From the sequence record KX130865: a DNA stretch of 64,000 bases; one strand, given 5' to 3'. Below the pieces are notes generated by a model. The model was not told the origin of the DNA and did not search any database. It worked only from the letters and a program-made list of their open reading frames with translations. Shown in pieces: positions 24,946 through 32,526 of the stretch; within the stretch, counting starts at the first letter, position 1; each line of letters starts with the position of its first letter. The position numbers and the translations under genes were made by a program. This DNA comes from Shigella phage SHSML-52-1.

Positions 24946-25257
24946 ATGGTTTATGTATATGCAATAGTTTATCGAGATATGGAAGGATTTACTGTCCCGG
25001 TTCCACTTGATGAGCATCGTCCTGCAGTATTTTTTAGAAAGGATATTGCAGATAAAGTTTTCGATACTTTGAAAACACAGTATAAAACAGATTTAAAAAT
25101 GGGAGTTCTAAGAATGGTCGAAACTCCGCGTAAGTTCTGGTTTAATAAGCTTGAAATGAAACACATTAAACTAGATGCGGAGACGCAAAGATTGTATCAA
25201 CGAATTCTAGATACTGGCCGTATTGTTAGTATTCCAATTGCAGGGACTTTACGATGA
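24946..25257 (+). CDS. hypothetical protein (103 aa)
   Basis: Track ORF, tightly packed between the srd-like gene and dda. Confidence 0.5.
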   Translation: MVYVYAIVYRDMEGFTVPVPLDEHRPAVFFRKDIADKVFDTLKTQYKTDLKMGVLRMVETPRKFWFNKLEMKHIKLDAETQRLYQRILDTGRIVSIPIAGTLR

Positions 25258-26567
25258 CATTTGATGATTTGACTGAAGGCCAGAAAAACGCCTTCAACGT
25301 TGTTATGAAAGCTATTAAAGAAAAGAAACATCACGTAACTATTAACGGGCCTGCTGGTACAGGTAAAACAACCCTTACTAGATTCATCGTTGAAGCTCTT
25401 ATTTCTGCCGGAGAATCAGGTATTATTTTAGCAGCCCCTACACATGCTGCTAAAAAGGTTCTAAGCAAACTTGCCGGTCAAGAAGCATCGACTATTCATA
25501 GCATTCTTAAAATCAACCCAACTACATACGAAGAAAACGTATTGTTTGAACAGAAAAAGGTTCCCGACTTAGCCTTGTGTCGTGTACTGTTATTTGATGA
25601 AGCGTCAATGTGCGACCGTTCTCTGTTTAAAATAATGTTAGCTAGTATCCCTAAATGGTGCACAGTAATTGGAATTGGTGACCGATGCCAGATTCGACCG
25701 GTAGACCCAGGCGAATCAACTGCGTATCTAAGTCCTTTCTTCACTCACAAAGACTTCGTGCAATGCGACCTTACAGAAGTTAAACGTAGCAATGCGCCAA
25801 TTATTGATGTTGCGACTGATATTCGTAATGGCAAATGGATTTATGATAAAGTAGTTGATGGGCATGGTGTTCATGGATATACAGACCTTAAATCGTATAT
25901 GATGAATTATTTTAATGTCGTTAAAACTCCTGAAGACCTTTTCGAAAATCGAATGATGGCATTCACAAATAAGTCGGTGGACAAGTTGAATTCAATTATT
26001 CGCCGAAAACTTTTTGAAACAGAAAAGCCATTTATTAAAGACGAAGTCATTGTTCTACAAGAGCCACTTACTAAGACATATAAGCTAGATGGCAAAAATA
26101 TGACCGAAATGCTTTTCAATAACGGGCAATTCGTTCGTATTCGAGACGCTGTAGAAACGTCTACATTCGTTAAAGCACGCGGTGTTTCAGGCGAATATAT
26201 GATACGATACTGGAATCTTACAGTAGAAACATATGGGGATGATGAAGAATACATCCGCGAAGATATAAAGGTTATTTCTTCCGAAGAAGAGCTTTATAAA
26301 TTCAATTTGTTTTTGGCTAAGACCGCAGAAACATACAAATTTTGGAATAAAGGTGGTAAAGCTCCATGGAGCGAATTCTGGGATGCTAAACGTATGTTCA
26401 CTAAGGTGAAGGCACTACCAGTATCAACCTTCCATAAGGCCCAGGGTATGTCTGTTGACACGGCCTTTGTTTATACACCGTGTATCCATTATGCCGATTC
26501 AGAATTAGCTAAACAGTTATTATATGTCGGCACAACTCGTGGTCGTTTTGACGTCCATTTTATTTGA
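25254..26567 (+). CDS. dda: Dda DNA helicase (SF1)
   Basis: 437 aa; N-terminus MTFDDLTEGQKNAFN…GPAGTGKTT matches recalled T4 Dda. Confidence 0.95.
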   Translation: MTFDDLTEGQKNAFNVVMKAIKEKKHHVTINGPAGTGKTTLTRFIVEALISAGESGIILAAPTHAAKKVLSKLAGQEASTIHSILKINPTTYEENVLFEQKKVPDLALCRVLLFDEASMCDRSLFKIMLASIPKWCTVIGIGDRCQIRPVDPGESTAYLSPFFTHKDFVQCDLTEVKRSNAPIIDVATDIRNGKWIYDKVVDGHGVHGYTDLKSYMMNYFNVVKTPEDLFENRMMAFTNKSVDKLNSIIRRKLFETEKPFIKDEVIVLQEPLTKTYKLDGKNMTEMLFNNGQFVRIRDAVETSTFVKARGVSGEYMIRYWNLTVETYGDDEEYIREDIKVISSEEELYKFNLFLAKTAETYKFWNKGGKAPWSEFWDAKRMFTKVKALPVSTFHKAQGMSVDTAFVYTPCIHYADSELAKQLLYVGTTRGRFDVHFI

Positions 26568-26576
26568 GAGAAAATT

Positions 26577-27254
26577 ATGAGCACTGATGTTATTATAGAT
26601 TTTGAAACATTCGGCAATACATCAAAAGCGGCTGTTATTGACCTTGCGGTTATTGCATATAATTCCGACCCTGAAGTTGTTGAATCATTTGAAGAACTTG
26701 TTCAACGAGGTAAGCGAATTAAATTTAATTTAGCTTCTCAGAAAGGGAAGCGAGTTTTCGCTAAATCCACTATGAAATGGTGGAAAGAACAATCGGCTGA
26801 AGCACGTAAAAACTTGGCCCCGTCTGAAGACGATGTCACTACGCTTGAAGGCATTAAAATCTTTTTAGATTATTGTCGAGCTAATAAAGTTGACCAATGG
26901 AAATCACAGATGTGGTGCCGTGGTATGAGCTTTGACTTCCCGATATTGGTCGATTTGATTCGTGACCTCTATCGTGATGAAGGTGTTCTTGAACCAGATA
27001 TTGATACTGATAAATTAGAACCGGTTAAATTCTGGGCTCAACGTGATATTCGTACGGCAATCGAAGCTTACTCGTTGACACGAGGATTAAGTATGTGTCC
27101 ATTACCGATGGGTACGCTAAAAGGATTCGTTGCCCATGATAGTATTCATGATTGTGCTAAAGATATTTTGATGTTAAAATATGCTCAGCGTTATGCGCTT
27201 GGCCTTGAAGATGTCCCTGAGAATCCTGACCCGTTAAGTGTAAAACAGCGATAA
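26577..27254 (+). CDS. dexA: exonuclease A (DexA, DEDD 3'-5' exonuclease)
   Basis: 225 aa; N-terminal DFETFG exo motif; position after dda. Confidence 0.8.
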   Translation: MSTDVIIDFETFGNTSKAAVIDLAVIAYNSDPEVVESFEELVQRGKRIKFNLASQKGKRVFAKSTMKWWKEQSAEARKNLAPSEDDVTTLEGIKIFLDYCRANKVDQWKSQMWCRGMSFDFPILVDLIRDLYRDEGVLEPDIDTDKLEPVKFWAQRDIRTAIEAYSLTRGLSMCPLPMGTLKGFVAHDSIHDCAKDILMLKYAQRYALGLEDVPENPDPLSVKQR

Positions 27255-27258
27255 ACCA

Positions 27259-27288
27259 GTTTACAACCAAGGATGGTTGGAGTATAAT
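27259..27288 (+). promoter_or_regulatory. early promoter (-35 GTTTAC 27259-27264, -10 TATAAT 27283-27288)
   Basis: Consensus hexamers with 18-bp spacer containing CAACCAAGGATGGTTG. Confidence 0.55.
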
Positions 27289-27318
27289 CTTTCTATCTTA
27301 ACTAAACAGGAAAACATT

Positions 27319-27813
27319 ATGAATATCAATACTACGGCTACTTACATCCTGAAAGACGAAAAACAAATCAACTGGTACGGTGCTTCAGTGCGAGCTTATG
27401 AAAAGTTTTGTGAAATTTTAGGCGCCACTCAAGGTAATAGTTTCACTATTGTTAACTTCATCAAACAAGCTGAAGGCCCTTGGTTATTCTTAGAAATTAA
27501 AAATTCATATGGTACAATTTCTACTACCGCCCTTCCAAGCACCGACTTTGAACTGTTGATTGAAGAAGTAGAACCCGTTAAAGACATCTGTATTGATATG
27601 GATATCGCTTGTATGTACGGTACTCTTATTAAGCCTATTGAGCCTACTGATTTGCTGTGTAAATATGTTTCAATTCGACGCCCATTCGCTGGTCCAGTAA
27701 ATGGATGGGTAACTGATCAGTGGATTGAAGACGGTGTTGAACTTCTTAACGTTGTTCATGCCGGTGATTTTAGTGTGGTTCCACGTAGTGCTGTGGTTAA
27801 TATCCTTAATTAA
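27319..27813 (+). CDS. hypothetical protein, tandem paralog A
   Basis: C-terminal block VTDQWIEDGVELLNVVHAGDFSVV shared with 27878 and 28343 ORFs; ATG 27319 lies downstream of the promoter. Confidence 0.5.
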   Translation: MNINTTATYILKDEKQINWYGASVRAYEKFCEILGATQGNSFTIVNFIKQAEGPWLFLEIKNSYGTISTTALPSTDFELLIEEVEPVKDICIDMDIACMYGTLIKPIEPTDLLCKYVSIRRPFAGPVNGWVTDQWIEDGVELLNVVHAGDFSVVPRSAVVNILN

Positions 27814-27815
27814 TG

Positions 27816-27845
27816 TTGTACATCCAAGGACGGATGGAGTATAAT
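27816..27845 (+). promoter_or_regulatory. early promoter (-35 TTGTAC 27816-27821, -10 TATAAT 27840-27845)
   Basis: Paralogous to the 27259 promoter (CATCCAAGGACGGATGGAGTATAAT). Confidence 0.55.
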
Positions 27846-27877
27846 GAATTCAACTTAAACAAAGAGAGAGAGAAATT

Positions 27878-28333
27878 ATGATTACTATTGGTGAAATTAA
27901 GCGTGTATCATCTGCATCTCGTTCTAAAGCTGCAGGTCGTCTGGTTGAAGTTGTCGGACTTCGTACTAATGGTACTGGACGTGTTAAAGAAGTTAAAGTT
28001 CGAATCATTCCTAGTTCCGGAAAAACTGAAACTCAGTACGCTTACGTAAGTCCTAAATTCTTGGAAACTCATGTGAGCGCTCATTTTGCTTCTACTGAAC
28101 CTAATGTACAGTTCAAATGGGCCTTGTGTAAAGGTGTTGAATTCCAGACTGATAAAGAATTTGATTACATCGACGAATACGGCTATCCAAGCACAACTGA
28201 TATCATGTGTGGCTTCATTAGTGACCAATGGGTAGAAGATGGTGAAAAGTTATACAATATCGTATTCTTAGGTGACTTCAGAGTTGTTAAAGAATCTGAA
28301 ATCACTCGCTATGTATCTCCTCGTAAAGCTTAA
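27878..28333 (+). CDS. hypothetical protein, tandem paralog B
   Basis: 151 aa; internal duplication plus shared C-terminal block ISDQWVEDGEKLYNIVFLGDFRVV. Confidence 0.55.
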   Translation: MITIGEIKRVSSASRSKAAGRLVEVVGLRTNGTGRVKEVKVRIIPSSGKTETQYAYVSPKFLETHVSAHFASTEPNVQFKWALCKGVEFQTDKEFDYIDEYGYPSTTDIMCGFISDQWVEDGEKLYNIVFLGDFRVVKESEITRYVSPRKA

Positions 28334-28342
28334 GGAATTATT

Positions 28343-28762
28343 ATGAATATTGCAAATCTCTCTATTGGTGATTACGTACACGTATCGGATGCTTCTCGCT
28401 CTAAAGTTGCTGGTAAGTTGGTTGAAGTTCTTTATGTAAGTGATCCTGTTTTTGGTCGCAATGAAGTTAAAGTTCGTGATGCTGATGGCAACATTGGTTA
28501 CGTTAAAAGCCAGTTCATTGAGCCAGAAGAAAAAGCGTTCAAATGGGGACTATGCAGATCAGTTTCTGTTGAAAAAGACCATGAATTCACTATTGCTGCG
28601 GCAACTGATGGAACACCATGGAAAACTAAGCAAATCGCTGGATTTATTAGCGACCGTTGGGTAGAAGATGGTGTCAAGCTTTATAACATTGTTTTTGCCG
28701 GGCAGTTCATGGTAGTTCCTGAATTCCAAATTAAAAAATATAGCCCAGCTGCTTTCGCATAA
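28343..28762 (+). CDS. hypothetical protein, tandem paralog C
   Basis: 139 aa; SDASRSKVAGKLVEV and ISDRWVEDGVKLYNIVFAGQFMVV shared with paralog B. Confidence 0.55.
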   Translation: MNIANLSIGDYVHVSDASRSKVAGKLVEVLYVSDPVFGRNEVKVRDADGNIGYVKSQFIEPEEKAFKWGLCRSVSVEKDHEFTIAAATDGTPWKTKQIAGFISDRWVEDGVKLYNIVFAGQFMVVPEFQIKKYSPAAFA

Positions 28763-28766
28763 AGTT

Positions 28767-28816
28767 GTTTACTTCTCCTCTGGTTTTGATATTATAACCA
28801 TATCAACCAGAGGAGA
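28767..28816 (+). promoter_or_regulatory. PeSL-type cassette: early promoter with 11-bp inverted repeat (CTCCTCTGGTT / AACCAGAGGAG)
   Basis: -35 GTTTAC 28767-28772, -10 TATTAT 28790-28795; downstream arm includes RBS GAGGAG of ORF 28822. Confidence 0.55.
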
Positions 28817-28821
28817 ATAAT

Positions 28822-29346
28822 ATGTTAGTTTATCGCGTAGAACGTAGTTTTTGTACTCAACGTGAATCATTACCAGGAATTGTTATCGAAGACGGTAAAG
28901 CCGTCAGAATTTGGGAAACCTCTTGGAATAAAGAACCTCTCTCACCTTACGGTTGGTCTGGCACTGACAACTCTGAAGAAACATGGGAGTTCCTTGATAA
29001 ACATGGAATAATCTCAGGTAACTTCTACCATCACGGCGACAACTATAATGTCCCTAATCGTCCTACAGTAAATGAAGACAAACTCCTTGAACAAAATATC
29101 TTAAGATACCATAGAATTGAGCACACATTTGAATTGAACAAAGATTGGGCTCAAGGGTTCTATTTTGGATTTGAAAGCGTTGACGCGGTTTATGCATGGT
29201 TTGATGACCAGGTGGATGTTGAACTCTTGAAAGCTAAAGGATACTACATCGCGGTCTATGAAGCACCTGATTTCATCCTCGGAAGTTGTCAATTAATGTT
29301 TAGACGTTCATTGGCAGAACAAGTTGATTTTATTTTGCTAAAATGA
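28822..29346 (+). CDS. hypothetical protein (174 aa)
   Basis: Track ORF after a PeSL promoter; no family recognised. Confidence 0.55.
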   Translation: MLVYRVERSFCTQRESLPGIVIEDGKAVRIWETSWNKEPLSPYGWSGTDNSEETWEFLDKHGIISGNFYHHGDNYNVPNRPTVNEDKLLEQNILRYHRIEHTFELNKDWAQGFYFGFESVDAVYAWFDDQVDVELLKAKGYYIAVYEAPDFILGSCQLMFRRSLAEQVDFILLK

Positions 29347-29389
29347 TGTACAACAACTATGGTCTATGATACTATAGACCTATCAAAAC
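29346..29389 (+). promoter_or_regulatory. PeSL-type element (inverted repeat GGTCTAT / ATAGACC; core TATAGACCTATCAAAAC)
   Basis: Conserved cassette core upstream of the 29404 ATG; -35 weak (ATGTAC). Confidence 0.4.
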
Positions 29390-29403
29390 AAGAGGAGAAT
29401 ATT

Positions 29404-29631
29404 ATGAAACGTCAAATCATTAAAAACGTAACTACTGATTCAAACATCGATGAGTTTGAAGATGTTCTGTTTAATCCTGATTTAGTTGTTGTACAGAAAA
29501 ACTGGACTGAATTTTTATGCTACACTGAAGTGGTTTACGTTTACGAAAAACTCGGTGATGAAATGCCTATCTATGGTATCTTCCGTGAAATCACTGAAAA
29601 CGGTACAACTTATTGGAAGGAAACTTACTAA
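29404..29631 (+). CDS. hypothetical protein (75 aa)
   Basis: ATG 29404 after AGAGGAGAA; track ORF starts 29359. Confidence 0.45.
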
Positions 29632-30035
29632 TGGCTAATAAATTCCGCGTTAACTCATGGTACAAATTTAAAGATAAACGTGCCCAAGAAGAGTTTATTA
29701 AAAACCACACTGATAATGGGATTTACGCACGACGTCTTGGCATGGAACCATTTAAAGTATTAGATGTTGACCATCTTGGACGTCCTACTAAAATTGTGAC
29801 ATCTACTGGCATGGTTGGATACGCAACAGGCGGTGATATCCTTGATGAAAACTTTATCTGGCTCTCTACGAATGAAGCAGAGTTCTTTGATGAAGTGGAA
29901 AATCCATACCAAGCTTCTGAAGAGCAAGAACAGATAGAAGATTTCACAGAATTCCCGGTAATGAAAGTTACTATCGAAAATAACGACCAGGCATGGTCTT
30001 TGTATCAAATGTTGAAAGCACATTTTAAGGAATAA
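29631..30035 (+). CDS. hypothetical acidic protein (134 aa)
   Basis: TAATG-coupled to the upstream ORF; track ORF 29613-30035. Confidence 0.5.
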
Positions 30036-30037
30036 TA

Positions 30038-30217
30038 ATGCCGTTATACGACTATAAATGTCAATCTGAAGATTGTGGCCATGAATATGAAAAAATTAAA
30101 AGGATTTCTGAACGAGAAAACGATGTTTGCCCTGAATGTCATCGTCTGTCTACTCGTCGGGTTTCTGCTCCTAAACATGTGAACGGTGGTTTTTACGACT
30201 TACTTAAGAAGGGATAA
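30038..30217 (+). CDS. zinc-ribbon protein (FmdB-like, 59 aa)
   Basis: MPLYDYKCQSEDCGHEYE…DVCPECH: CxxC…CxxC pattern of the FmdB regulatory zinc-ribbon family; not in track. Confidence 0.45.
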   Translation: MPLYDYKCQSEDCGHEYEKIKRISERENDVCPECHRLSTRRVSAPKHVNGGFYDLLKKG

Positions 30218-30219
30218 TT

Positions 30220-30645
30220 ATGGCTTTTAAAGGTTTTGAAGTTGGTAAGAAATATCGTATTATCAAAGGTCAAGAAGATAATTTCTTGAGAATTCTTAAT
30301 ACAACTGGTAAACGTCTTAACACTAATCTGCATACTACTTTATTGTCTAAAGATTTTATTGTGGAAGAGATGATTGGTTACGGTGTTTCAGTGATTGCTG
30401 TAGAAGCCGTAGGCGATTACGGCCGAACTATTCATAGTATGCAAGGTGATATTCTAATTTACGGTGCAGAATTTAAATTCTTTGAAGAAGTTCTTGAATC
30501 AGATACAGCCGTCGATTTCAAAAAAGGCTCTATAGAATTTGTTGATGGTTCGGTGATCGTATCAGGCGATGTGGTCATTACAGTTAAAAGTGAACAAGGG
30601 CGTTTGGCTGCAATTGATGCACTTCAGAAAATTAAATTTAAATAA
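30220..30645 (+). CDS. hypothetical protein (141 aa)
   Basis: Track ORF followed by a terminator. Confidence 0.55.
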   Translation: MAFKGFEVGKKYRIIKGQEDNFLRILNTTGKRLNTNLHTTLLSKDFIVEEMIGYGVSVIAVEAVGDYGRTIHSMQGDILIYGAEFKFFEEVLESDTAVDFKKGSIEFVDGSVIVSGDVVITVKSEQGRLAAIDALQKIKFK

Positions 30646-30665
30646 GGGCTTCGGCCCTTTTTGCT
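30645..30665 (+). terminator. rho-independent terminator (AGGGC-UUCG-GCCCU + U-run)
   Basis: Hairpin overlapping the stop codon, followed by TTTTTGCTTT. Confidence 0.7.
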
Positions 30666-30686
30666 TTAGATTTCGGATGATAGAAT
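30661..30686 (+). promoter_or_regulatory. putative middle promoter for gene 39 (TTGCTTTA 30661-30668, -10 TAGAAT 30681-30686)
   Basis: Near-consensus MotA box with 12-bp spacing. Confidence 0.45.
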
Positions 30687-30708
30687 ACCTTCATAACGAG
30701 GAGACAAC

Positions 30709-32526
30709 ATGATTAAAAATGAAATTAAGGTATTGTCAGATGTAGAACATATTAAGAAACGTAGTGGTATGTATATTGGTTCTTCTGCCAAAGAAGCCCA
30801 CGAGCGTTTTTTGTTTGGTAAATATCAACAAGTTGAATATGTTCCTGGTCTGGTTAAATTAATCGATGAGATTATTGACAACTCGGTTGATGAAGCTATT
30901 CGTACATCATTTAAGTTTGCAAATAAAATTGATGTGCAAATTAAAAATAATCAAGTTTCGGTGGAAGATAACGGACGTGGTATTCCTCAAGGTTTAGTTA
31001 CCGACCAAACGGGTGAACAAATTCCTGGGCCTGTAGCAGCCTGGACTATTCCAAAGGCAGGTGGTAACTTTGGTGATGACTCTGAACGCAAGACTGGTGG
31101 TATGAACGGCGTCGGGAGTAGTTTAACTAATATCTTCTCTACGTTGTTTACAGGCATCACGTCAGATGGTGAAAATGAAATCACTGTTAACTGTTCAAAC
31201 GGAATGGAAAACAAATCATGGTCTTCTAAGAAATCTAAAGGTAAAGGCACTAAAGTAATCTTCACTCCTGATTTCTCTTCATTTGAAGAGCATAATTTAT
31301 CTCAAATTTATTTAGATATTACTTTAGACCGACTTCAAACATTGGCAGTCGTTTATCCTGATATCAAGTTCACATTTAATGGTAAAAAGGTCGATGGTAA
31401 TTTTAAACGATTTGCTAAACAATTTGGTGAAGATAACATCATTCAAGAAAATGATAAAGTCTCTATAGCATTCACAACATCACCAGATGGCTTCCGTCAT
31501 TTAACTTATGTGAATAACATCCATACTAAAAATGGTGGACATCATGTTGAATGTGTAATGGACGATATCTGCGAACATCTTTTGCCGGGTATTAAAAAGA
31601 AATATAAGGGTATTGAAGTCACTAAAGCTCGTGTTAAAGAATGTCTCACAATGTTGATGTTTATTAGAGACATGAGCAACATGCGTTTTGATTCTCAGAC
31701 TAAAGAACGTTTAACGTCAACGTATGGTGATATTCGTAATCATATCCAATTAGATGCTAAGAAAATTGCTCAGGCGCTTCTTAAAAACGAAGCCTTGATT
31801 ATGCCTATTGTTGAAGCAGCATTAGCTCGTAAATTGGCGGCAGAAAAGGCTGCAGAAACTAAAGCAGCTAAAAAGGCAACTAAAGCTAAGGTTCATAAGC
31901 ATATTAAAGCTAACCAATGTGGTAAAGATGCAGATACGACATTGTTCTTAACAGAAGGTGATTCTGCAATTGGTTATCTCATTGATGTTCGTGACCGTGA
32001 ACTACATGGTGGATTCCCATTACGTGGTAAGGTAATGAATAGCTGGGGTATGTCATATGCTGATATGATGAAGAACAAAGAGCTCTTTGATATCTGTGCT
32101 ATCACAGGTCTTATTCTTGGTGAAAAGGCAGAGAATACGAACTATCGTAATATTGCAATTATGACCGATGCCGATCATGACGGTCTTGGAAGTATTTATC
32201 CGGCTTTGCTTGCTTTCTTTAGTAATTGGCCTGAATTGTTTGAACAAGGACGTATTCGCTTTGTTAAAACGCCTGTAATTATTGCACAAATTGGCAAAAC
32301 TCAAAAATGGTTTTATACTGTAGCTGAGTATGAAGAAGTTAAAGATACACTGCCTAAGCATAGTATTCGATACATCAAGGGATTGGGCTCCCTTGAAAAG
32401 TCAGAATATCGTGAAATGATTCAGAACCCTGTGTACGACGTAGTTAAACTTCCTGAAAATTGGAAAGAACTATTTGAAATGTTGTTGGGTGATGATTCAG
32501 AACTTCGTAAAGAATGGATGTCCTAA
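30709..32526 (+). CDS. 39: topoisomerase II large (GyrB-like ATPase) subunit, contiguous gp39+gp60
   Basis: 605 aa single ORF with GHKL ATPase and TOPRIM regions; no split gene 60 or bypass gap. Confidence 0.9.
   Translation: MIKNEIKVLSDVEHIKKRSGMYIGSSAKEAHERFLFGKYQQVEYVPGLVKLIDEIIDNSVDEAIRTSFKFANKIDVQIKNNQVSVEDNGRGIPQGLVTDQTGEQIPGPVAAWTIPKAGGNFGDDSERKTGGMNGVGSSLTNIFSTLFTGITSDGENEITVNCSNGMENKSWSSKKSKGKGTKVIFTPDFSSFEEHNLSQIYLDITLDRLQTLAVVYPDIKFTFNGKKVDGNFKRFAKQFGEDNIIQENDKVSIAFTTSPDGFRHLTYVNNIHTKNGGHHVECVMDDICEHLLPGIKKKYKGIEVTKARVKECLTMLMFIRDMSNMRFDSQTKERLTSTYGDIRNHIQLDAKKIAQALLKNEALIMPIVEAALARKLAAEKAAETKAAKKATKAKVHKHIKANQCGKDADTTLFLTEGDSAIGYLIDVRDRELHGGFPLRGKVMNSWGMSYADMMKNKELFDICAITGLILGEKAENTNYRNIAIMTDADHDGLGSIYPALLAFFSNWPELFEQGRIRFVKTPVIIAQIGKTQKWFYTVAEYEEVKDTLPKHSIRYIKGLGSLEKSEYREMIQNPVYDVVKLPENWKELFEMLLGDDSELRKEWMS

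Follow-up and report, generated by a model that had tools for sequence, protein, structure and literature searches.

Three tandem genes of the motB family between dexA and gene 39 of an RB69-like phage: a common C-terminal domain, two kinds of N-terminal domain and related putative early promoters

What are the three small genes that stand in tandem between dexA and gene 39 of Shigella phage SHSML-52-1, and how did they come to share part of their sequence and, for two of them, a similar promoter? The window analysed here is a stretch of 64,000 nucleotides (nt) of the DNA of this phage (KX130865). A first-pass annotation had described three open reading frames (ORFs), called A, B and C hereafter, as a locally amplified family of unknown function with duplicated promoters. 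The three ORFs are found on the + strand where they had been placed (Table 1), and the gene order bears out their location between dexA and gene 39. By sequence comparison, the trio is motB.1 (gene A), motB (gene B) and a second, diverged copy of motB (gene C), and the three would be early genes of an RB69-like phage. The description as a family of unknown function does not hold, as this is the named MotB family (PF17613), of which the T4 member has been studied experimentally (PMC6070864, PMC7827196). We consider it likely that the explanation developed below is correct as a whole, that is, for identity, architecture, transcription, mechanism and origin taken together.

The kinship of the three proteins is supported by several types of comparison. 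In composition-adjusted BLASTP alignments, B and C match across their full length (E = 9e-32, 43% identity), and the C-terminal domain of A matches those of B (E = 3e-10) and C (E = 2e-10). The Pfam motB family PF17613 (‘Modifier of transcription’), whose gathering cut-off is 25 bits, recognises B over its full length (130.2 bits, E 8.4e-38), C (81.4 bits, E 8.8e-23) and the C-terminal half only of A (35.1 bits, E 1.5e-8, profile positions 78-153). A profile-profile comparison with hhalign, of 42 MotB.1-type with 40 MotB-type sequences, aligns residues 112-163 of A to residues 82-146 of B (probability 98.75%, E 1.5e-16). The common unit is thus an entire domain and not merely the 24-residue block represented by VTDQWIEDGVELLNVVHAGDFSVV in A, ISDQWVEDGEKLYNIVFLGDFRVV in B and ISDRWVEDGVKLYNIVFAGQFMVV in C, and its first hairpin is lengthened in B by an insertion of 13 residues. 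The C-terminal block that the first-pass annotation had noticed in the three ORFs is upheld by these methods, and its conserved core, G[WFY][IV][TS]D[QR]W[IV]E.G..L.N[IV]V..G.[FY].V[IV], is present in all three proteins. That the shared blocks might result from low complexity or chance is a negligible possibility, in favour of which we found no supporting point and against which stand BLASTP E values of 1e-10 to 1e-32, the hhalign probability and the passing of a curated Pfam threshold.

As for the N-terminal domains, the SxASRSK[AV]AG[KR]LVEV element reported earlier is indeed common to B (SSASRSKAAGRLVEV) and C (SDASRSKVAGKLVEV). Called a repeat in the first description, it is not repeated within a protein and represents one motif of a homologous N-terminal domain. 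The N-terminal domain of A is unrelated to those of B and C according to BLASTP, and A belongs to the MotB.1 group, not to MotB proper. We also searched a set of 1.84 billion representative proteins exhaustively with hidden Markov models (HMMs) of the three C-terminal domains and obtained 29 clusters only (at 50% identity). Small phage proteins make up about 26 of these, with lengths of 100-251 amino acids (aa) in all cases but one, and the domain is found at or near the C-terminus in nearly all. Such a narrow distribution indicates that the domain has no distant homologue of known function. Three long matches, to repeat proteins with many weak stretches, were judged spurious. When A and B were compared by sequence with solved structures, only unrelated proteins came up, with best E values of 0.041 and 0.9, respectively.

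The comparison with known phages supports the gene assignments. Over positions 26500-30800 (4.3 kb), the DNA is 98.4% identical to that of phage Mizar and 95.7% to that of RB69, and to judge by these values the source phage is an RB69-like T-even phage, Mosigvirus. The gene order, dda-dexA-A-B-C-motB.2-cef-goF-39.2-ORF005c-39, places the trio in the dexA-to-gene-39 early region of a Tevenvirinae genome. The same order is annotated in RB69, with motB.1 (followed by the 29-aa ORF012c), motB and RB69ORF010c, ‘similar to motB’. Residues 1-123 of A show 98% identity to RB69 MotB.1, and residues 140-164 match RB69ORF012c without a difference (100%); A shares 37% identity (E 1e-25) with T4 MotB.1. 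C occupies the same position as RB69ORF010c (AAP75912), from which it does not differ in any meaningful way. Relative to T4 MotB (NP_049626), B shows 48% identity over the full length and C 39%. The two proteins have in common with T4 MotB the two-domain layout, the neighbourhood (dexA ... cef-goF-39.2-39) and an early-type promoter. They differ from it by their lengths, B being shorter by about 11 residues and C by about 23, by the presence of two tandem copies in this phage, and by the N-terminal domain of C, which has no net positive charge (0 versus +5 to +8).

The paralogy of the trio is already known, as it has been published and is annotated in RB69. Patterson-West et al. (2021) reported that T4 MotB and MotB.1 have a common conserved C-terminal domain and differing N-terminal domains, that motB or motB.1 may derive from duplication of the other, and that RB69 harbours two motB copies, one motB.1 and one 29-aa peptide (PMC7827196). 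As a discovery, the identification of the trio thus carries little weight: it is correct but ordinary, for a known gene family with a partly known function.

How are these proteins built? Each of them would consist of two small beta-barrels joined by a flexible linker, with a MotB-type C-terminal barrel of about 55-75 residues in all three, and N-terminal barrels predicted to be KOW-like in B and C and LSm/SH3-like, of the GoF/MotB.1/Frd.2 type, in A. Structure prediction, which had been proposed as a check in the first-pass annotation, is consistent with this layout: the AlphaFold2 models of A (predicted local distance difference test score, pLDDT, 79) and of B (pLDDT 84.7, from an alignment in which the T4 MotB row was left out) comprise two beta domains connected by a disordered linker, with a predicted SH3-like barrel at the C-terminus. 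In A, the LSm/SH3-like barrel spans aa 1-85, the low-confidence linker 86-107 and the MotB-type barrel 108-164. The modelled N-terminal domain of A is a five-stranded bent antiparallel sheet (strands 8-11, 42-49, 55-61, 67-73 and 80-82) with a helix at 26-37. According to the model, this domain is the MotB.1 member of the LSm-like GoF/MotB.1/Frd.2 family, a fold family in which Kim et al. (2025) placed the N-terminal domains of these three proteins (PMC12152347). As no sequence link between the MotB.1 profile and GoF was detectable with hhalign (probability 0.8%), the relation of A to GoF rests on the published structure predictions. A is acidic throughout, with a pI of 4.5 and a net charge of -9. 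Its start is the ATG at 27319, downstream of the -10 element; a TTG at 27277 falls within the promoter.

In B, a basic KOW-like N-terminal barrel (1-62) is followed by an acidic linker and the C-terminal barrel (77-151). The KOW-like N-terminal domain with the SRSK.AG..VE motif, which characterises MotB proper (Category 1 of PMC7827196), is present in both B and C, and residues S14, R15, S16, G20, V23 and E24 (B numbering) are invariant across 40 family members. The Pfam KOW model (PF00467) gave no match to B or C. C begins 9 nt past the stop codon of B and has an AAGGA ribosome-binding site and no promoter of its own; B and C are predicted to be co-transcribed from P(B). The picture of transcription would then be that A is expressed from its own early promoter, P(A), and B and C together from a second one.

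The shared C-terminal domain deserves particular attention. In the models of both A and B, DSSP shows that strands beta3 and beta4 form a tight hairpin and that beta5 is preceded by a helical turn of 3 residues. A tight turn between beta3 and beta4 together with a helical turn before beta5 is the pattern of SH3-like small barrels and not that of OB folds. The modelled domain does not show the OB arrangement, a barrel of five strands in which a helix separates beta3 from beta4, and it has the features of the SH3-like class (Tudor, chromo, PWWP, KOW), namely five strands, the helical turn and fold matches. In contrast, this domain was proposed in 2021 to belong to the cold-shock DNA-binding family b.40.4.5, based on an HHpred assignment (PMC7827196). 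It would then be an OB-fold nucleic-acid binder through which all three proteins bind DNA or RNA, with the N-terminal domains as modulators. The tight binding of MotB to DNA and the frequency of nucleic-acid binding among small barrels, whether OB or SH3-like, speak for that proposal, which we nevertheless regard as rather unlikely given the predicted strand and turn pattern.

The distribution of charges is relevant in this regard. Among the 40 MotB family members, the N-terminal domain has a mean charge of +6.2 (0 to +10) and the C-terminal domain of -1.9 (-7 to +2), and the linker is acidic. The values are +8 and -5 for the N- and C-terminal domains of B, and 0 and +1 for those of C. From the models and these charges, we infer that the basic KOW-like N-terminal domain would be the DNA-binding part of MotB, and the shared, neutral-to-acidic SH3/Tudor-like C-terminal barrel is probably a common protein-contact or assembly module. 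By analogy with T4 MotB, the basic N-terminal domain of B would be compatible with non-specific DNA binding; that of C is neutral. C, whose N-terminal domain is uncharged, has probably diverged in function from B, as its partner or as a variant of it. In the acidic MotB.1, the C-terminal module would be used again, combined with another N-terminal effector domain. It is tempting to speculate further that the C-terminal barrel might be a docking module of SH3/Tudor type, and not a DNA-binding OB fold, that takes different effector barrels to a common nucleoid partner such as H-NS or StpA, or to each other, and that this was masked by the truncation of MotB.1 in the T4 and RB69 records. This extension is decidedly tentative. 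If it were true, MotB would have its basic KOW-like domain as effector, and MotB.1 its acidic LSm-like one. The division of labour suggested here, between a basic N-terminal domain for DNA binding and a C-terminal domain for common contacts, is testable.

What, then, might these proteins do in the infected cell? T4 MotB binds DNA tightly and non-specifically and co-purifies with H-NS and StpA. It increases burst size 2-fold and alters the footprint of H-NS at proV, where MotB dominates, and it leads to the up-regulation of 75 host genes, about 30% of which are regulated by H-NS, with de-repression of H-NS-silenced genes (PMC6070864, PMC7827196). By homology, B would coat DNA without sequence preference and override or remodel the binding of H-NS. 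Such an action would relieve H-NS silencing and improve phage yield. Phages possess other H-NS antagonists, T4 Arn being one of them. Neither T4 Arn nor T7 gp5.5 is known to be related to MotB in sequence or fold, and MotB acts via DNA binding, unlike antagonists that bind the oligomerisation surface of H-NS or mimic DNA. The likeness between T7 gp5.5 and MotB lies in the proposed interference with H-NS silencing early in infection (cited in PMC7827196). Several points weigh against our interpretation. B is only 48% identical to T4 MotB and the function of these proteins is assigned by analogy, DNA binding can be judged but roughly from net charge, and the promoters are consensus matches only and hence putative. 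In addition, deletion of T4 motB.1 gave no laboratory phenotype (PMC12152347).

A comparison of A with the MotB.1 proteins of reference genomes revealed why the full domain structure of MotB.1 may have escaped attention. A is orthologous to T4 and RB69 MotB.1 (NP_049627, AAP75915 + AAP75914) and combines an N-terminal domain of LSm-like type (PMC12152347) with a C-terminal one of MotB type (PMC7827196). It differs from them in that it forms an uninterrupted protein of 164 aa with the whole barrel, unlike the reference forms of 119 aa in T4 and 132 + 29 aa in RB69, and it has a 20-residue linker insertion relative to T4-type MotB.1. The T4 reference (NC_000866 / AF158101) contains one extra G in motB.1 (...TGGATT(G)GAAGAT..., extra base in parentheses; TGGATTGGAAGAT, versus TGGATTGAAGAT in MT984581) at position ~3806 of the NC_000866.4 locus, ~7305 of the record, to be compared with 27730-27740 in the window. 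As a result, its MotB.1 ends at 119 aa, and the frame that follows the extra G still encodes EDGVELLNVVHAGEYSVVPRSAVVAILN. The aligned sequence of a re-sequenced T4, MT984581, does not contain this G, and a 143-aa protein with a complete C-terminal barrel is annotated therein. Twelve other T4/T4T records, as well as RB55 and RB59, match over 520 and not 521 nt, which fits a one-base difference. The 143-aa T4-type protein (P0011) is present on 256 contigs, and the 164-aa form constitutes a cluster of 181 members. As for RB69 (AY303349), it has two 1-nt insertions relative to the window, about 50 nt apart, at ~1687 and ~1738 of the RB69 locus (window 27684 and 27735), which split motB.1 into a 132-aa ORF and the 29-aa ORF012c.

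MotB.1 thus normally carries a complete MotB-type C-terminal barrel, the 119-aa T4 and 29-aa RB69 forms being products of single-base insertions in old records, and the ‘Category 3 peptide’ of PMC7827196 is nothing other than the out-of-frame tail of MotB.1. Programmed frameshifting in T4 and RB69 was rejected on account of the T4 record without the extra base, of the 14 records at 520 nt, and of the need for two shifts within about 50 nt in RB69. One could also regard gene A as a decaying pseudogene of a motB duplicate, as the two insertions in RB69 and the one in the T4 reference all affect the C-terminal domain and the deletion mutant of T4 appears normal in the laboratory. Nevertheless, this is very improbable. 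The ORF is intact in the window, in the 164-aa cluster and in the 143-aa protein, T4 MT984581 and the 520-nt records point to an intact gene in T4 as well, and the MotB.1-type alignment contains 21 invariant residues, nearly all of them within the C-terminal domain. Kim et al. had motB.1 synthesised from NC_000866.4 and reported a monomer of 13.8 kDa (PMC12152347). As this is the size of the truncated product, the only published functional tests of MotB.1 would have used a protein devoid of about the last three strands of the barrel. The one-base truncation is not discussed in the two papers that mention motB.1 (PMC7827196, PMC12152347), and constructs designed from NC_000866 are probably truncated.

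Does the trio stem from a local amplification, as first proposed? We found that this part of the proposal stands for B and C, which would result from a tandem duplication, and not for A, a domain-shuffled relative. With just 43% identity between B and C, their duplication must be old. The distribution across phages, which the first-pass annotation had suggested looking at, fits with this. C-type orthologues (≥80% identity) are present in 206 of the 763 phage records that have a MotB homologue, with 86%-identical ones in other genera. All 11 C-type records among the matches listed hold a second MotB-like place, some of them being Tequatrovirus, and overall MotB-like places exceed records by 211. 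The C-terminal domain of A is only 44% identical to that of B, but its identity reaches 72-88% with the C-terminal domains of phage proteins, about 180 and 250 aa long, whose N-terminal architectures differ. This greater proximity to proteins of other phages indicates domain shuffling rather than local copying. In addition, natural chimeras were identified, one (P0155) with an N-terminal domain 89% B-like and a C-terminal domain 89% C-like, the other (P0222) T4-like in its N-terminal domain and 81% C-like in its C-terminal one, which indicates that tandem motB copies still recombine. KOW-like N-terminal domains are also found fused to a MotB.1-type C-terminal domain. Together with the chimeras, such mixed architectures suggest that, in the evolution of this family, N-terminal domains of two types are shuffled with C-terminal domains of two subtypes.

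The promoters bear on the same question. Early promoters were searched for with a consensus made of a GTTTAC-like -35 element, a 17-nt spacer and a TATAAT -10 element. P(A) and P(B), the putative promoters upstream of A and of B, are 75% identical over 48 nt. Their local alignment score is 40, compared with 13.2 +/- 2.3 (maximum 30) for 2000 shuffles and with 12-21 for alignments to four other early-type promoters of the window. They share a 26-nt core, ACA[A/T]CCAAGGA[T/C]GG[T/A]TGGAGTATAAT, at 23 of 26 positions, with no other occurrence in the window even when 3 mismatches are allowed. The core is found at 2-4 places per RB69-like genome and at 525 places in 208 records, and in other T-even genomes it precedes unrelated genes, for 320-336-aa coiled-coil proteins of phrog_1435 and phrog_2351. 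Because the core also lies ahead of unrelated genes, P(A) and P(B) are best viewed as copies of a dispersed cassette that were not born by co-duplication with the genes. Moreover, as the N-terminal domains encoded after P(A) and P(B) are unrelated, the promoters were not copied together with their genes. The earlier mention of duplicated promoters was thus right in that the two are truly related, and wrong as to their having been duplicated with the genes. No MotA-box middle promoter or late promoter was found before A, B or C; the scan returned a single weak match, within B, besides the one expected ahead of gene 39.

Taken at face value, the adjacency of three genes on the same strand with a common domain, and the resemblance of P(A) to P(B), could reflect a recent local amplification, by tandem copying of units that each comprised a promoter and a gene of an uncharacterised family. 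We deem this improbable in view of the low B-C identity and the spread of C-type orthologues over genera, the unrelated N-terminal domains of A and B, the closer relatives of the C-terminal domain of A in other phages and the occurrence of the promoter core ahead of unrelated genes, to which is added that the family is named and partly characterised. Our preferred scenario is that B and C would have arisen by an old tandem duplication and A by domain shuffling, and that P(A) and P(B) would be copies of a dispersed early-promoter cassette. Such a cassette fits with modular shuffling in this variable region. Mobile early-promoter cassettes, called PeSL, have been described as mediating modular shuffling in T4-type phages (Arbiol 2010, PMC2839356; Comeau 2014, PMC4122927); RB69 is not mentioned in PMC4122927. 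Like them, P(A) and P(B) are near-identical, contain a small inverted repeat and are dispersed in variable regions, and motB.2 appears to have been relocated as a unit with its promoter relative to T4. In contrast with PeSL cassettes, the repeat of P(A) and P(B) is of 5-6 bp and lies inside the -35/-10 spacer, and the promoters are not accompanied by a terminator-like stem-loop. Of use for curation and experimental design, though not a discovery, are the intact MotB.1, the SH3-like acidic shared domain and the dispersed cassette.

Table 1. Positions of the genes, motifs and putative promoters of the locus in the window
Feature	Position	Strand	Basis
dda	25254-26567	+	
dexA	26577-27254	+	
P(A), putative T4-early-type sigma-70 promoter of motB.1, TTTACA-17-TATAAT	27260-27288	+	consensus scan, 11/12
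Gene A, motB.1, intact 164-aa form	27319-27813	+	phrog_2333 E 1.9e-82; PF17613 E 1.5e-8
Linker motif of A, DMDIACMYGTLIKP (aa 93-106)	27595-27636	+	MotB.1-type alignment; low pLDDT, short helix 96-100
C-terminal core block of A, VTDQWIEDGVELLNVVHAGDFSVV (aa 131-154)	27709-27780	+	BLASTP, hhalign
P(B), putative early-type promoter of the motB pair, TGTACA-17-TATAAT	27817-27845	+	consensus scan, 10/12
Gene B, motB orthologue, 151 aa	27878-28333	+	PF17613; 97% identical to RB69 MotB
N-terminal motif of B, SSASRSKAAGRLVEV, core of KOW-like domain (aa 11-25)	27908-27952	+	BLASTP, motif comparison
C-terminal core block of B, ISDQWVEDGEKLYNIVFLGDFRVV (aa 114-137)	28217-28288	+	BLASTP, hhalign
Gene C, second motB copy, RB69ORF010c type, 139 aa	28343-28762	+	99% identical to RB69ORF010c
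N-terminal motif of C, SDASRSKVAGKLVEV (aa 15-29)	28385-28429	+	BLASTP, motif comparison
C-terminal core block of C, ISDRWVEDGVKLYNIVFAGQFMVV (aa 102-125)	28646-28717	+	BLASTP
P(D), putative early-type promoter of motB.2, downstream boundary of the trio	28768-28795	+	consensus scan
motB.2	28822-29346	+	
cef	between motB.2 and goF	+	
goF	29631-30035	+	
39.2	30038-30217	+	
GoF-like gene, RB69ORF005c homologue, 141 aa	30220-30645	+	phrog_622 E 1e-20
Fused topoisomerase gene 60+39	from 30709	+	

Some features of the proteins themselves are worth mentioning. The motif DMDIACMYGTLIKP, contained in the linker insertion of A, is found in relatives directly before the C-terminal domain or, in proteins of about 250 aa, between two LSm-like domains, and it stands at the extreme N-terminus in relatives of about 180 aa. 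Possibly, it mediates interactions as a short linear motif. All 40 aligned MotB-type proteins end in alanine (..PRKA, ..AAFA, ..ALYA, ..IHRA, ..ARCA), unlike those of MotB.1 type, and the last codons of B (28328-28330) and C (28757-28759) specify that residue. This terminal alanine may serve as a C-terminal recognition or degradation signal.

The spacers of P(A) and P(B) contain inverted repeats (within 27263-27288 and 27820-27845), CAACC..GGTTG in the former and CATCC..GGATG in the latter. A further allele, CTTCC..GGAGG, has one G.T wobble, and the 5-bp pairing is kept through compensatory changes in 20 of 20 T-even copies examined. The hairpin is weak; with a stem of 5-6 bp between the -35 and -10 elements, it would have a stability of about -7 kcal/mol as RNA; its register is ambiguous and differs between alleles. 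In other T-even phages, the cassette is present before each member of a tandem pair of genes for 316-336-aa proteins with C-terminal coiled coils (phrog_1435, phrog_2351).

Downstream of the trio, P(D) is orthologous to the T4 motB.2 promoter (score 46), although motB.2 is located differently than in T4. The spacer of this promoter, TTCTCCTCTGG, is complementary to the motB.2 ribosome-binding site, CCAGAGGAGAA (28773-28813). Only read-through transcripts could thus sequester the motB.2 ribosome-binding site in this manner. The same spacer arm also pairs with the ribosome-binding region of cef (29381-29399). Direct repeats of 20 nt, 90% identical, exactly flank motB.2 (28805-28824 and 29387-29406), as would be expected of a gene module inserted through recombination.

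The neighbourhood also contains possible relatives of the N-terminal domain of A. In line with the GoF/MotB.1/Frd.2 family (PMC12152347), the same locus harbours, beside A, both goF and the GoF-like gene at 30220-30645. The product of the latter displays a weak, full-length similarity to the N-terminal domain of MotB.1 (hhalign E 0.0013, probability 18%), and its BLASTP comparison with GoF was not significant. The presence of this gene and its weak similarity to MotB.1 suggest that at least five of the eight genes from dexA to 39 are built from a few shuffled small-barrel modules. A search of positions 26000-31000 against Rfam at a permissive threshold gave two sub-threshold chance matches only (Y_RNA, SNORA48) and no sign of an RNA gene.

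In Mizar (PV714129), the closest relative, an intact 164-aa motB.1 is present within 1321-1835 of the locus without annotation as a coding sequence (CDS). The annotated CDS of Mizar motB begins at locus position 1835, which falls within the promoter core (1821-1846), instead of at the ATG that corresponds to 27878. Lastly, near-identical pairs of early-type promoters are found elsewhere in the window, at 41062-41092/41383-41413 and 15530-15560/28767-28797, with alignment scores of 92 and 54, respectively, over a background of 12-35. Promoter subfamilies may thus be a general trait of this genome.

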